This document shows, piece by piece, positions 470-5,062 of a stretch of 64,000 nt of DNA (its first letter is position 1; every line of letters starts with the position of its first letter). Location: positions 32,001 through 96,000 of the forward strand of contig CBDCCZ010000060.1 of NCBI GenBank assembly GCA_965215005.1, read 5' to 3'. The DNA comes from Kofleriaceae bacterium (GTDB lineage Bacteria; Myxococcota_A; Polyangia; Haliangiales; Haliangiaceae). Below the pieces are notes generated by a model. It did no database searches and was not told the DNA's origin. It saw nothing but the letters and a program-made list of their open reading frames with translations. A program made the translations under genes and the position numbers.

Positions 470-3400
470 TCAACGCGGCGTCATGCGAGCTACGGCGGCA
501 CACGTTCCGCCGGCGATTGGGCTCGTGCCCGCGCACGCTTCGTTGGCCTCGGCGAGAAGCGAGCTGGCGCTCGCCGGCTCTAAGCGCGCCAGTGCCAGCG
601 CGCTCGCCGCATGCTCGAGCGGCGCATCGAGCGTGCGCCGCAGCTCGAGAGCTGCCCGCAGATCCCCGCGCGCGGCCCTCGTGTTGCCCAAACTCGCCCG
701 CGCCGTCCCGCGTAGGTGGAGAGCCTTGGCCAGCACGGTGTCGTCGTGCGTCTCCTGCTGCGTTGCCGTTTCAATGAGTGCGTCGAGCTCTGCAATCGCC
801 GCATCGCTGCGTCCTTGCGCTATCGCGAGCTCGACCTGCGCTTGCCGTATGACCAGCATGAGGGGGTGGGTGGGGCCACGGGAGCGCGTCAAGCGACGCT
901 GCGCTTCCGCCAGCGAGCGCGCCGCCTCGGGCCAGCGACGCTGTTGCATGCGAATGTTCGCCACGAGTAGCAGTGTTTGCGCGAGGTCAGGATCGGCGTC
1001 GGGTGTTGCTGCGAGGATATCCAAGGCGCGAGCGCAATTGGCATCGGCTTCATCGAAGCGCCGCAGCGCGGTGAACGTCTCGCAAAGATTTACGACCGAC
1101 ATCACCACCGCGTGACCCTTGGCGCCAAGCACGGTTTCTCGCAACGCCAGCCCGCGCTGATGAATCGGCAGTGCCTCGCCAGGCCGACCGAGCAGCACGA
1201 GCGCCGAGCCGACGTTGTGCAGGAAGTAAGCAAGCCGAGGAGCATTGGGACCGAGTAGGGCTTCTTGTGCAGAAAGTGCCTTCTTGAGGTACGGCAGCGC
1301 TTCTCTGAGCCGGTGAAGCTGCCCGAGCATGCTGCCAATCGCGTTCAAAGCACCAACCGTGAGCTCCGCATTCTCACCGAGCGAGCTCTGATAGATCGAC
1401 AACGCGCGCTGGTAGTGTTCGAGCGCCGCAGGATAGTTGCCTTCACCGCTGTAGTTGAATCCGAGCGCGTATTCGAGGCCTCCGAGCTGCGGGTGCCAAG
1501 GCCCGAGCTGGCGGCGCAACACCTCGCCTGATGCGGCCAATAGCGCGCGCGCCTCGTCAAAGCGACTCTGCTGTCGCAGCGTTGCGGCGAAATAGGTCGT
1601 TGCGTGGGCAACGTCTGGATGGTCGGCACCCAGCTCATCCGTCAACAGCTCGAGCTCGCGTCGTTGGTGCTCGGCCGCGCGATCCAAGTTACCGCGAACT
1701 AGAGCGTCACGCCCTTGCACCCCGTGAAGTCGTGCTCGCAGCCGTGGCGGCTCTCCCGCGCGCACGATTGCTGTGCTCGATACCTCGATGAGGGCCGTTG
1801 CGGCTTCGGCGCGGCTTTCACGTCGTTGCACCACATCGGCGAGACTGACCCATGCGTCGGCCAAGCGCAGGTCATCACCAGCACGCGCTGCTTCCGTGGC
1901 ACTCGCGAGCAGAGACGACTCTGCCAGCTCGTCCTGACTGAGGAAATAGTGGCTTCGTCCGAGCAGGAGCAGCGCATCGGCGAGAAGAAACGGGATCGCT
2001 GCTTTGCGGGCGAGCTCCACCGCTCGTTGAGCGGTCGCAAGGGCGGCGGGATAGCGGGAGAGCTCAAGGTCCGTGCGAGCTTGCGCCAGCTCGTGCTCGA
2101 GCTCGTCCACCGCCGCGCGATCACGAGCGGCCGCGGGTAGCGAATACTGTGACAACAGGCGCGAATCGTCGCACTCCGCGGCGCTGGGAAGTGAAGCCGC
2201 TGCGCGCAGTGCGTTGGCGACCAGTTCAGCATCGACGTCAATCTGAATCGAGCGGATCAGAGCGTCTACCTCGCCGAGGCGCTGGTCCAGGCAGTGGACG
2301 CGGCGATCGAGCATCAGTCCCGATTGCGTTCCAGCGCTATACGTAGCCTCGCAGGCATCCCGGTGCGTCGCCTGCCAAGTCTCGCGATACTGAGTAAGTC
2401 GCTCCGCAAGCTGAGCAGCAGCGACGCGGCCACTGCTGCCCAATGCATCGTTCCAGACCGAGCGCAGCTCGCCGGCCTCCGTCGCATTCCAAGCGCGGTC
2501 GAAGCGGCTGCCGCTGTCGATGCAGCGCGCGGTCGCGCTGCGTTCCTCACGCTGCGCCAGTGCCACCGCACTAACGATGAGCATGCTCGCGACAGCCAAA
2601 CCACCAGCAATGATCATTGCGCGGCGAGGTGGCGGTGCGATTGCCGCTAAGAGCGCGTCCATGGTCGGGAATCGCTCATTTGGCTCGGCGCGCAGACCGC
2701 GGTCGAGGGCGCGCTGCAGCCGTCGATTCGTGCTCTTTGGCGGCTGTTGGCGTCGGCCAGCCAGGATGTTATCGCGAATCCCCTTGACCGTTTTACCGGC
2801 GAACGGACGTGCTCCACACAGCGCTTCCCATGCGGTAACGCAGAACGACCATTGATCAGAGCGCACATCCCCCTGCTCATACCGCAACCTCTCGGGAGGC
2901 ATGTACGCTGGGGTTCCGGCGATGGAGCCAAACCTCGTCAGCTGACGGTTGAGTAGTCTTTGTGGCTCCTCGAGATCCCGCGCGGTTATGGTCGGCTCAG
3001 CGTCTTGCGTCTCGTAGGTTGCCAGATGAGAAGCTCCTGACGACTCATTCGACTCTTGCCAGACCTCATTCCCGGATGAAGCGCCCTGCCGCGGATCGCT
3101 GGAGTCTTCTGCCATGAGGCGTGCAAGCCCGAAATCTGCGATGCGAACCCGCCCGTCGTCGGCCACTATTATATTGTCAGGTTTGATATCACGATGAACC
3201 AGCCCGGCGCGGTGAACGGCGGCCAGCCCGCGACCTGCGGCGGCCAGCGCACGCAAGATCTCACTTCGCGAACGCTGCTCGAGTCGTAGCCAGGTTCGCA
3301 GCGTCGGCCCGCTCACGAGCTCCATGGCGATGAAGACGTCGTCGTGCGCGGTGCCGACATCATGCACTGCAACCACGTGAGGGTCGCGAATTTGCGCCAG

Positions 3401-3739
3401 CGCTTGCGCCTCGCGCAGTACCCGGCTGCGCCGTTGTCCGCGCGCTGGATGTAGCTTGAGCGCTATGCGACGGTCGAGCTGCGGGTCATAGGCCTCATAC
3501 ACGATGCCCATGGCGCCAGCGCCGATGCGCGAGAGCAGGACATAGCGGCCAACACAGCTGCCTTCCCGGTACTCGAGCTGCTCACAATCGGCCGCGCGTT
3601 CCGGCGAGGCCGAGGTCTTGGTAGGTGCCTCGGCTGGATCGGCCGCGCCCGTCGGCGCGTCACTCTCGGCCTCGCCTCGAGCGGGCGCGATACCACCCTC
3701 GAGTCGGCCCTGACCCGCATCGATCTTGCCGCTAGTCAC
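470..3739 (-). CDS. Membrane-bound Hanks-type Ser/Thr protein kinase with C-terminal TPR array
   Basis: GAGAMGIV, IALK, HRDIKPDN, DFGLA and GTPAYMPPE kinase motifs; one hydrophobic TM (AMIIAGGLAVASMLIVSAVALA); Cys-containing region, then kinesin-light-chain-like TPR repeats (LGxxHP). Confidence 0.93.
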   Translation of the reverse strand: MTSGKIDAGQGRLEGGIAPARGEAESDAPTGAADPAEAPTKTSASPERAADCEQLEYREGSCVGRYVLLSRIGAGAMGIVYEAYDPQLDRRIALKLHPARGQRRSRVLREAQALAQIRDPHVVAVHDVGTAHDDVFIAMELVSGPTLRTWLRLEQRSRSEILRALAAAGRGLAAVHRAGLVHRDIKPDNIIVADDGRVRIADFGLARLMAEDSSDPRQGASSGNEVWQESNESSGASHLATYETQDAEPTITARDLEEPQRLLNRQLTRFGSIAGTPAYMPPERLRYEQGDVRSDQWSFCVTAWEALCGARPFAGKTVKGIRDNILAGRRQQPPKSTNRRLQRALDRGLRAEPNERFPTMDALLAAIAPPPRRAMIIAGGLAVASMLIVSAVALAQREERSATARCIDSGSRFDRAWNATEAGELRSVWNDALGSSGRVAAAQLAERLTQYRETWQATHRDACEATYSAGTQSGLMLDRRVHCLDQRLGEVDALIRSIQIDVDAELVANALRAAASLPSAAECDDSRLLSQYSLPAAARDRAAVDELEHELAQARTDLELSRYPAALATAQRAVELARKAAIPFLLADALLLLGRSHYFLSQDELAESSLLASATEAARAGDDLRLADAWVSLADVVQRRESRAEAATALIEVSSTAIVRAGEPPRLRARLHGVQGRDALVRGNLDRAAEHQRRELELLTDELGADHPDVAHATTYFAATLRQQSRFDEARALLAASGEVLRRQLGPWHPQLGGLEYALGFNYSGEGNYPAALEHYQRALSIYQSSLGENAELTVGALNAIGSMLGQLHRLREALPYLKKALSAQEALLGPNAPRLAYFLHNVGSALVLLGRPGEALPIHQRGLALRETVLGAKGHAVVMSVVNLCETFTALRRFDEADANCARALDILAATPDADPDLAQTLLLVANIRMQQRRWPEAARSLAEAQRRLTRSRGPTHPLMLVIRQAQVELAIAQGRSDAAIAELDALIETATQQETHDDTVLAKALHLRGTARASLGNTRAARGDLRAALELRRTLDAPLEHAASALALARLEPASASSLLAEANEACAGTSPIAGGTCAAVARMTPR

Positions 3740-3826: not shown

Positions 3827-5062
3827 CTACTCGACGCTGCTCGAGCTCCGAAGCACCGGTTGTGACAAGTCGGGTTGGCTGGCCACGGTTGTGCTATTGC
3901 CGCCGCAGGCGATGGGGCCCGACTGCGGGCACATCTTGCCGTAGCGATTCTTGCGAACCTTGCGACAGTCTTCGGAGTTCAAGATGTTCCATAAGGCGAC
4001 TTTGCCGGGGCAGTCGCGACGGTTGCGTTTGCGCACCCGGTCCCACAGCATATCGACGAACATGCAACACTGTGGGCAGGCGGGGATGCCGCTCTCTTGA
4101 CCATTTTTCCCGATCCAATAGGCGTCCCAGCTCTTGATTCCGCACAGCGTGTCGTCGAGCTTCTTACTGGTATCGACGCGGCAGCGGTCGAGCACCTTGC
4201 GAAAGACCTGCTTCTCGGCGCAGTTGAGCATCGATACGGGCGCGCGTTTGTTCATCAGGCACTCCTTGACGTTGTCTGGGAGTGATGACCAGTCGCCGGT
4301 GGCGCCGCGGACGATCGACTCGAACATCGGCGGCCACGAGTATCGATTCAAGGTCTCGCCCTCGTTGCCGCGGCTGCACTGGGTGAGGGCGTCGAGCCCC
4401 GAGAGGCCCTCTTCCTCTACCGTGGTTCCGTCGAGGCACTGAACCTTCAAAGCCGACTTGGCTTGGAACTTCTTCCGTGGCGGCGGGAAGGGAGCCTCTG
4501 GCGGCTTTTCCTCATCGGGATCCGGCCGAGATTCTGTCGAGCCACGCGGCTGGCAGATCAACTCCGAAGCCGCGTATCCGACGACGAAGCCGACGCCGGC
4601 CGCAGCGGGAACGCCAACCGGCTGACAAATGAGAGCTCCAGGCCCCGTGGCCACGCACGATACGGCTGCGGTAGCGCCGCCAATCACCGCACCACCGGCA
4701 CCAGCTTTGAGGCGGCAAGAGATGACCTCCGCCTGGCGCTGGAAGTCGCGCCAGTTGAGAGCGACCTGCTGCTCTGGATCGCCACCGCCACCTCCGCCGC
4801 TAAGCCCTTCACCGCCGCCATAGAGTCCACCAGTGTTACTGGCTGCAACGCACATCTGGCTTGTCGTTAGCGGCCTGCTATTGTCTGAAGTGGCCTTCTC
4901 GACCTGCCACTCAGGCACCAACGACTGGATTGCGTGACCCGTTACCGTCTTGTGGTAGCCGAGATAGCCAACTCCAATGGCCATTCCAATCCCGGAGATG
5001 ACCAATGTGCTGACAGCGGTGGTGCCGCGGGTATTTCGCAGGAGATGTAGGAGGCTCTGCAC
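3827..5062 (-). CDS. Putative Flp-pilin-like exported protein with C-terminal deaminase-type toxin domain
   Basis: N-terminus LLRNTRG|TTAVSTLVISGIGMAIGV resembles an Flp/TadE prepilin leader; Gly linker; Gly-zipper hydrophobic hairpin; Pro/acidic linker; NCAE (4225-4214) and PACPQC (4084-4067) Zn-deaminase-like motifs. Confidence 0.6.
   Translation of the reverse strand: MQSLLHLLRNTRGTTAVSTLVISGIGMAIGVGYLGYHKTVTGHAIQSLVPEWQVEKATSDNSRPLTTSQMCVAASNTGGLYGGGEGLSGGGGGGDPEQQVALNWRDFQRQAEVISCRLKAGAGGAVIGGATAAVSCVATGPGALICQPVGVPAAAGVGFVVGYAASELICQPRGSTESRPDPDEEKPPEAPFPPPRKKFQAKSALKVQCLDGTTVEEEGLSGLDALTQCSRGNEGETLNRYSWPPMFESIVRGATGDWSSLPDNVKECLMNKRAPVSMLNCAEKQVFRKVLDRCRVDTSKKLDDTLCGIKSWDAYWIGKNGQESGIPACPQCCMFVDMLWDRVRKRNRRDCPGKVALWNILNSEDCRKVRKNRYGKMCPQSGPIACGGNSTTVASQPDLSQPVLRSSSSVE

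Follow-up and report, generated by a model that had tools for sequence, protein, structure and literature searches.

The locus and its modular gene product

The window considered here, that is, the whole stretch of DNA that was analysed, comprises 64,000 nt of the genome of a Kofleriaceae bacterium, an uncultured myxobacterium of the class Polyangia (assembly GCA_965215005.1, contig CBDCCZ010000060.1, positions 32,001 to 96,000). Its minus strand carries, at 3827..5062, a gene for a protein of 411 amino acids (aa), which an initial annotation had taken for a nucleic-acid deaminase toxin fused to a pilin leader and sent out through a Tad-type filament. The open reading frame (ORF) is genuine, encoding 411 aa followed by a stop and beginning at a GTG. 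The public gene call for it, P0002, is shorter (385 aa), begins at M27 and loses the leader together with half of the hydrophobic segment behind it. Homology within the family continues 5′ of M27, where LLRN.RGT of the 411-aa protein aligns with LLKN.AGT of P0005, and a stop codon stands in frame 6 codons before the GTG; for both reasons the GTG is taken as the start. Given that the deposited model begins at M27, automatic annotation would miss the N-terminal region in members of this family. A chance reading frame is dismissed by two full-length homologues, P0003 (39% identity, E 2.2e-56) and P0004 (E 8.1e-26).

The gene lies 122 bp downstream of grpE and 87 bp upstream of a Ser/Thr kinase-TPR gene, all three on the same strand, in surroundings of a housekeeping character (sodA, mannose-6-phosphate isomerase, ilvBNC and DAHP synthase). 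The downstream neighbour, at window positions 470-3739 (minus strand), encodes a large Ser/Thr kinase with TPR repeats. Around the 411-aa gene, base composition shows no anomaly and no island signature, no mobile element was seen, and a scan for promoters and terminators gave nothing on its strand.

Every sequence element listed in the initial annotation is present in the translation. The protein starts with a short basic leader (aa 1-13; 5024..5062, minus strand, as for all features of the gene), which contains LLRNTRG and ends in R12-G13. Directly after G13 comes TTAVSTLVISGIGMAIGVGY, with Ser at +5, at the head of a Gly/Ala/Ser-rich hydrophobic segment (aa 14-36; 4955..5023) that hydropathy and alignment mark as a membrane or signal segment; its 19-residue Kyte-Doolittle mean is 1.79, and the other members of the family reach 1.3-1.8. 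The most conserved motif of the family, HK..TG.AI..LVPEWQV (aa 37-54; 4901..4954), follows immediately. After a poly-Gly linker (aa 78-94; 4781..4831) there is a Cys-bracketed, Gly/Ala-rich hydrophobic hairpin (aa 116-170; 4553..4717) with C116, C136, C146 and C170 and two hydrophobic peaks of 1.51 and 1.78 on the same scale, a candidate membrane-insertion element; a similar element, with a Gly/Ala-rich stretch between cysteines, occurs in P0003, P0004, P0006 and P0008. A Pro/acidic linker (aa 171-198; 4469..4552) leads to the toxin domain (aa 199-372; 3947..4468), backed by a structural model, a structure search and its occurrence on other carriers, and predicted to have a deaminase fold. Within it, SALKVQCLDGTTVEEEGLSG occupies aa 203-222; C281-A282-E283 of the NCAE motif (4214..4222), at the start of predicted helix 2, would provide a Zn ligand and a catalytic Glu; and C329-P-Q-C332-C333 of the PACPQC motif (4064..4078), at the start of predicted helix 3, contains further candidate Zn ligands. 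The C-terminal tail (aa 373-411; 3830..3946) is of low confidence in the model and little conserved except for C386. In total the protein has 18 cysteines, and the Cys count is even (4-22) in all 10 module-bearing proteins of the family described below, as well as in the lipoprotein P0010.

One N-terminal module with exchangeable C-terminal regions

Homologues were sought with phmmer, run exhaustively against 1.84 billion cluster representatives with a cut-off of E ≤ 0.001, and ten proteins were recovered, the own record of the 411-aa protein included. Besides P0003 and P0004, six of them (P0005-P0009 and P0011) match at the N-terminus only, over aa ~4-66 or up to aa 166, and the match of P0010 is confined to aa 274-355. 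Word-indexed searches returned the own record alone, or the own record and P0010. The whole protein has no match in Pfam, NCBIfam or PDB sequences (phmmer); a profile search of PDB sequences gave nothing bar one chance match (E 2.8), and the ESM Atlas gave no usable match for the whole protein.

What these proteins share is a module of ~45 residues, made up of a short basic leader that ends in RG, then a hydrophobic segment rich in Gly and Ala, and GYLGYHK..TG.AI..LVPEW. An alignment of nine proteins (the 411-aa protein, P0003, P0004, P0005-P0009 and P0011) leaves G30, Y33, Y36, H37, T41, G42, I45, L48, V49, P50, E51 and W52 invariant; the leader ends in RG in seven and in AG in one, and the remaining member is cut N-terminally. 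Beyond the module the nine proteins cannot be aligned except within sub-groups, and at least four unrelated kinds of C-terminal region stand behind it. The first is the toxin domain of the 411-aa protein, P0003 and P0004. The second is Ntox16-like and found in P0006 (PF15523, E 0.0047, 17.6 bits, under the 25-bit cut-off) and in the middle of P0008. The third is a GHSQG-bearing region in P0007 and at the end of P0008, with weak, sub-threshold matches to thioesterases and hydrolases, and the fourth is a β-rich Cys domain in P0011 and P0012. It had been suggested in the initial annotation that the same N-terminus might carry variable C-terminal domains, and these nine sharers with at least four C-terminal kinds are what was found. 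P0008 (L005 17190-19082, minus strand) apparently bears two warheads in series after the module and a Gly-zipper, the Ntox16-like one followed by the GHSQG region.

The module is rare. It was detected in 2 of 401 genomes sampled in the class (the source genome, G000, and G318), in 1 of 401 sampled across the phylum (G000 only) and at one locus in a collection of species representatives (G318). A further copy in G318 (contig C327, L011 1349-2301, plus strand), located downstream of a gene for a sigma-54-type activator, runs from a 63-aa ORF into a 272-aa ORF in another frame, through either a frameshift in the gene or a fault of the assembly. Elsewhere in the sequence searches, weak matches in G023 and G026 were set aside, and the metagenome locus L016 was rejected as a chance match, of only 20 residues inside a transposase region.

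A toxin domain on three carriers

The 411-aa protein's C-terminal domain is likewise found in other settings. Its profile matched in 3 of 401 genomes across the phylum, namely G000, G282 and G508, the last of which was discarded as weak and interrupted by a stop. In G282 the match (E 1.1e-17) takes up the final ~190 residues of an RHS protein of 1374 aa (L020 5394-9518, plus strand) with 18 RHS repeats (PF05593, 6e-137), in which two hydrophobic stretches come after the RHS core and ahead of the toxin domain. P0010 carries the domain behind a lipobox-like signal. Three carriers are thus known for the domain, an RHS protein, a lipoprotein and the module, and its recurrence on the RHS tip and the lipoprotein identifies it as a polymorphic-toxin domain. 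M278, C281, E283, K284, C294, L306, C307, W312, C329, C332, C333, F335, C351, P352 and C386 are invariant in all five sequences; the residue before the CxxC is P in two and A in three. Against plasmids, tblastn found nothing for the toxin domain and nothing for a YwqJ-like domain.

This organisation is that of RHS and other polymorphic toxins, in which, by the part of Zhang et al. 2012 that was available, a trafficking part at the N-terminus is followed by a linker or pre-toxin part and, at the C-terminus, by a toxin that can be exchanged; the cassette of the 411-aa protein also occurs on an RHS protein. The differences are that the module is not among the leaders listed in that part of the paper, where the word 'pilin' occurs 0 times, and that no immunity gene lies downstream of any of the three carriers (the 411-aa gene, P0010 and the RHS gene), nor was one found in their surroundings. 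P0010 is followed by metabolic ORFs on the opposite strand, and the RHS gene by a Thr-rich ORF of lipoprotein-like character, which has a weak lectin-like match and is not obviously an immunity gene. At the 411-aa gene, grpE and the kinase-TPR gene are the neighbours, in agreement with the initial annotation, which had noted no adjacent immunity gene. A kinase-AAA-TPR gene (L020 12544-16404, plus strand) lies ~3 kb from the RHS carrier; the presence of kinase genes near both carriers is probably a coincidence in kinase-rich myxobacterial genomes.

With one module before at least four C-termini, and one toxin domain also on RHS and lipoprotein carriers, the modular polymorphic toxin proposed in the initial annotation is well supported, and the 411-aa protein is very probably such a toxin. 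The polymorphic-toxin architecture itself is known; the trafficking module and the deaminase-fold warhead are both rated as new.

Linkage of the module to a Tad operon

For contact-dependent killing, myxobacteria require the Kil Tad pilus, and the toxins of the Kil system are stated to be unknown in the available parts of Seef et al. 2021 and Herrou et al. 2025; whether Kil is a toxin-secretion device is called unclear in the former. On contig C4 of the source genome there is a complete Kil-like Tad/Flp operon (~224,000-237,200; L006 79-13120, minus strand), which bears out the suggestion in the initial annotation that tad/cpa and prepilin peptidase genes might be present. It encodes two Flp-like pilins, TadE-, TadG- and TadF-like proteins, a prepilin peptidase (PF01478, 67 bits; L006 12113-12613), a 329-aa protein of unknown type, an RcpC/CpaB protein, a secretin, an FHA-T2SSE ATPase, two T2SSF platform proteins, an FHA-like protein and a TPR protein, and it ends in a second T2SSE ATPase of 370 aa, a 248-aa lipoprotein-like protein and, as its last gene, P0008 (630 aa). 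P0008 overlaps the 248-aa gene by 4 nt, and the latter overlaps the ATPase gene, also by 4 nt. By gene content the Kil pilus of Myxococcus xanthus is the same kind of machine, a type IVc system in a myxobacterium with a secretin, a CpaB-like protein, two platform proteins, an FHA-bearing ATPase, a prepilin peptidase, Flp pilins and TadE/F/G-like genes.

In G318, P0012 follows two T2SSF genes, a TPR gene, an orthologue of the 370-aa ATPase (64% identity) and an unrelated 306-aa protein. What P0008 and P0012 have in common is confined to 35 residues of the module (51% identity, E 1e-8). A module protein occupies the last operon slot in both of the genomes found to contain the module. The 248-aa and 306-aa proteins encoded just upstream are dissimilar, and a conserved adaptor is not proposed.

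Several observations weigh against a role of this machine in the delivery of the 411-aa protein. Gene context was seen for five module loci (the 411-aa gene, P0003, P0008, P0012 and the frameshifted copy in G318), and only P0008 and P0012 are adjacent to tad genes. The 411-aa gene stands between grpE and the kinase gene in a housekeeping region, and no tad gene lies within 6 kb of P0003 on its 67-kb metagenome contig. Matches to the second ATPase at E ≤ 1e-80 are present in 71 of 121 genomes of the class, paralogues included, and no module protein was found downstream in the 11 best orthologous two-ATPase loci inspected. The leader, too, lacks two marks of a Tad pilin, Glu at +5 and a match to a pilin profile, as set out below. 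Complex prediction of aa 14-70 with the mature TadG-, TadE- and TadF-like proteins of C4 gave a score of 0.00, which, with the partner fold uncertain and without controls, speaks neither for nor against binding. Of the Tad export claimed in the initial annotation, what stands is that a paralogue, P0008, is the last gene of a Tad operon; the 411-aa gene itself is outside the tad locus. Dependence of the export or display of the 411-aa protein on the Tad machine is a tentative proposal, with the odds somewhat against it.

Signal peptide, anchor or prepilin

The strongest of the alternatives is that the 411-aa protein is an ordinary toxin exported by Sec, with a signal peptide (perhaps cut at the G-x-G before YLGYHK) or an uncleaved anchor and with no part for Tad, in which case co-regulation for predation, or chance insertion, would account for the sister genes that end Tad operons. 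Leader and hydrophobic segment together span 24-32 residues, and the positions -3 and -1 before Y33 are taken by small residues, as expected by rule of thumb of a signal peptide. Moreover, the toxin domain also travels on a lipoprotein signal and on an RHS protein, and no special route is therefore needed; the 411-aa gene and P0003 are far from tad genes; and Sec with the type II secretion system (T2SS) is the default route of polymorphic toxins in the available part of Zhang et al. 2012. However, an invariant motif of 12 residues on otherwise unrelated proteins is unexpected after an ordinary signal peptide, and so is the same last Tad-operon slot in both genomes, with a 4-nt overlap with the upstream gene in G000. 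On balance, we consider an ordinary Sec toxin doubtful. A Sec signal peptide cut before Y33 would leave YLGYHK..LVPEW as the mature N-terminus, and this, by analogy with TcpF (see below), could possibly be a docking peptide.

According to the initial annotation, the N-terminus is a true Flp/TadE-type prepilin, cleaved after G13, whose helix would lie in or cap the Tad filament while the toxin rides along as a pilin fusion. The leader is indeed short, basic and terminated by G, with RG in 7 of 9 members, and RG stands directly before the helix in all five pilin and pseudopilin genes of C4, among which the TadG-like one likewise lacks Glu at +5 (RG/AVLIM). The alignment program hhalign sets the RG motifs and hydrophobic segments of the module and these pilins in register, a prepilin peptidase is encoded in the operon, and ~41 residues of the module are conserved after G13, about the size of a mature Flp pilin. 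For the Kil pilus, Tad minor pilins with variable distal domains are described in the available part of PMC12075869. Against these points, Glu at +5 is found in none of the nine members, whereas the Kil pilins have the motif G/XXXXE with an 'invariant glutamate' in the source as far as it was available; no hidden Markov model (HMM) of Flp_Fap, TadE, Tad or N_methyl matches at E ≤ 10; and a Flp_Fap search of the genome at E ≤ 1 brings up the two true Flp genes of C4 and no others. The hhalign probability for the five C4 pilins is 3.8%. The segment is rich in Gly, Ala and Ser, whereas the helices of the C4 pilins are rich in Leu, Ile, Val and Phe, and conservation peaks after the helix, at LVPEW, and not at the cleavage site. 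The leader seen in the initial annotation is therefore conserved in the homologues as far as RG goes, without the Glu; the absent Glu and HMM matches and the low hhalign probability do not bear out a Flp/TadE prepilin, which appears unlikely. The leader data are accounted for just as well by a Sec signal peptide, or by a signal anchor with a docking motif behind it.

Predicted fold of the toxin domain

A first AlphaFold2 (AF2) model, built from four sequences over aa 186-411, reached a mean predicted local distance difference test (pLDDT) of 56.3 and showed no clear fold and no significant match; four deaminase-fold chains were among its best 50 matches in a VIA-align search (Z 3.6-4.1), and a cytidine deaminase (CDA) and APOBEC2 lay within Foldseek noise. 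A second model, from five sequences including the RHS tip and over aa 196-372, reached a pLDDT of 75.3 and a predicted template modelling score (pTM) of 0.74. It consists of a β-hairpin (200-208 and 214-220), a helical insert of ~60 residues, mostly of low confidence, helix 2 (87-98 in model numbering), which begins directly after C281 (C86 of the model), a short extra helix (299-307), a strand (309-317; 114-122 of the model), an insert of 11 residues and helix 3 (135-148 of the model), which starts at C329 (C134); only helices follow. In the model, the [H/C/D]xE motif at the start of helix 2 and the CxxC motif at the start of helix 3, by which deaminases are recognised, are thus both in place.

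The second model was compared exhaustively with 48,161 chains by VIA-align, and 109 chains reached Z ≥ 2. Among the best 50 of these 109 matches, 33 are named deaminases, and the first 13 are all deaminases. The best is blasticidin-S deaminase (3oj6_A; Z 6.1, root-mean-square deviation 3.9, 93 residues aligned), and others are the cytidine deaminases 3b8f_A and 3dmo_A (Z 5.0), DddB (9k3e_B; Z 4.7), a DYW domain (9kfx_A; Z 4.7), the CDA of E. coli (1af2_A; Z 4.6) and a cytidine-deaminase toxin of a type VI secretion system (9c63_A; Z 4.0); ADAT2, guanine deaminase and TadA also appear. When the ESM Atlas was queried with aa 196-380, the first cluster had a score of 0.91, with 184 features in common, and PF14431, the YwqJ-deaminase family, is present in 24% of its members; 13 of 30 matches fall in the PF14431 set, in a tool whose statistics are unmeasured for protein parts.

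Other results tell against the deaminase fold. The best Z, 6.1, falls in a range that VIA-align calls 'middling'. With the second model, Foldseek gave nothing at E ≤ 0.001, the best match being ERH-2 (E 0.29) and cytidine deaminases ranking 43 and 48. The model is built from only five sequences, ~60 residues of its insert have a pLDDT near or below 50, and strands 4-5 are not predicted in it. Pfam yielded 0 matches at E ≤ 10 for whole proteins and trimmed cores, and PF14431 is unmatched in G000 at E ≤ 1e-5. In profile comparisons, hhalign probabilities were 0.65% with one YwqJ-like domain, 1.35% with 20 canonical deaminases drawn from five genomes and 0.5% with four CDAs; the CAE/HAE helix was the sole stretch aligned, in register each time. 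In addition, eight Cys of the domain are invariant, and in an exported protein those of the CAE and CxxC motifs could form disulfides instead of binding Zn.

On this last point rests the alternative that the domain is a deaminase-like scaffold but not a nucleic-acid deaminase, its cysteines forming disulfides and its action being target binding, an effect on a small molecule, or membrane disruption together with the Gly-zipper. It would fit the even Cys counts of the module proteins and P0010, the export of the domain, the missing strands 4-5, the small-molecule deaminase as the best structural match and the absence of profile-level similarity to any deaminase family. Nevertheless, none of the 5 sequences departs from C-x-E and C-x-x-C, which stand exactly at the helix starts where deaminases hold Zn; E283 and K284 are invariant even though disulfides do not need them; the RHS-borne domain is made in the cytoplasm, where disulfides would be unlikely; and the language-model neighbours are clusters of YwqJ deaminases. 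Such a scaffold without deaminase activity on nucleic acids is accordingly held to be improbable. The deaminase assignment of the initial annotation survives in that the domain is modelled with a deaminase fold, CAE and CxxC stand at helix starts and deaminases head the VIA-align matches; Foldseek and profile searches did not reach significance. We regard the deaminase fold, as modelled, as probable, and give an active nucleic-acid deaminase an even chance.

Relation to YwqJ-like deaminases

YwqJ of Bacillus subtilis acts as a cytidine deaminase on single-stranded DNA according to the available part of PMC13648612. Iyer et al. 2011 place the YwqJ-like proteins in the 'C-terminal hairpin' division of the deaminase superfamily and describe truncation after helix 3 in the YwqJ, BURPS668_1122, OTT_1508 and XOO_2897 clades; the signatures that they give are Gx[CH]xE, an insert that precedes helix 2 and contains a conserved His, a further insert separating strand 3 from CxxC, and frequent truncation after helix 3. 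Like the YwqJ-like domains (PF14431), the domain described here is a C-terminal toxin domain of polymorphic toxins, RHS carriers included, has CxE where both CxE and HxE are allowed, contains a long insert before helix 2 and another between strand 3 and CxxC, and has lost the elements past helix 3; by language-model features, these are its nearest neighbours.

The only PF14431 match in 301 sampled Myxococcota genomes (G043, L021 1261-1863, plus strand) lies at the end of a 1519-aa open frame. The spacing from CAE to CxxC is 48 residues in the 411-aa protein, compared with 52 from HAE to the Cys cluster in this YwqJ-like domain, and between the motifs both have T-[ES]-x-x-L ... W, in the form D-T-S-K-K-L ... 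S-W in the former and V-T-E-A-D-L ... M-W in the latter. In contrast to YwqJ-like domains, the toxin domain has no PF14431 match at any threshold tried, has G at -2 in only 1 of 5 sequences, lacks a conserved His in the insert, and possesses an extra helix between helix 2 and strand 3 and five further invariant Cys; the 411-aa protein also differs in its N-terminal module and in having no neighbouring immunity gene. We conclude that the domain represents a new, divergent family of deaminase-fold toxins, closest to the YwqJ-like clade.

Comparison with known pilus systems

Two known cases bear on how a pilus might carry such proteins. In the available part of Herrou et al. 2025, KilLMN 'Tip' complexes customise the pilus through variable, disulfide-rich distal domains on N-terminally anchored proteins. 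Unlike the KilLMN tips, the module proteins are not TadE/F/G homologues by HMM, lack Glu at +5 and have their genes at the other end of the operon, away from the TadE/F/G-like ones; toxin cassettes can be recognised in them, whereas the Tips are published without an assigned toxin as far as the source was available. The other case is TcpF of Vibrio cholerae, which docks on the tip minor pilin TcpB (cited in the available part of PMC12075869). By analogy, the conserved N-terminal peptide of the otherwise variable, exported module proteins could act as a tip docking signal. The systems differ, in that TcpF is a colonisation factor of a type IVb pilus and the module proteins would be toxins of a Tad pilus. 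In the literature, subscription-only papers not being covered, nothing was found that describes a toxin whose leader is pilin-like or linked to Tad.

Proposed function and implications

The best explanation of these data is that the 411-aa protein is an exported, modular antibacterial polymorphic toxin with a deaminase-fold domain that is handed to the Kil-like Tad machine of its genome, a reading to which we assign a probability of about 60%. The N-terminal segment would take the protein into or through the inner membrane, and the Cys-rich toxin part would fold outside the cytoplasm; export before folding would explain both the lack of an immunity gene and the 18 Cys. The module would then pass the protein to the Tad (type IVc) machine, either as a pilin-like subunit cleaved after G13 or by way of a docking peptide. 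The Gly-zipper hairpin may help the toxin cross the prey membrane, after which the deaminase domain would deaminate nucleic acid of the prey; going by YwqJ, cytosine in DNA would be the most likely target. Taken on its own, the proposition that the RG-TM-LVPEW module (TM, transmembrane) is a degenerate Flp-like pilin or a tip-docking peptide, and the module proteins cargo of the Kil-like machine, is a speculative one and on the unlikely side.

Deaminase toxin families are sources of base-editing enzymes, DddA being an example, and the toxin domain adds an uncatalogued family with a deaminase fold. The module family, in turn, offers a concrete and testable candidate for the cargo of Kil-type systems and for its address tag. 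If the proposed delivery is true, these proteins would be the first toxins to be identified as cargo of a predatory Tad pilus, their warheads (deaminase, Ntox16-like, lipase-like and others) would be exchangeable, and the last slot of the operon would be a cassette site.

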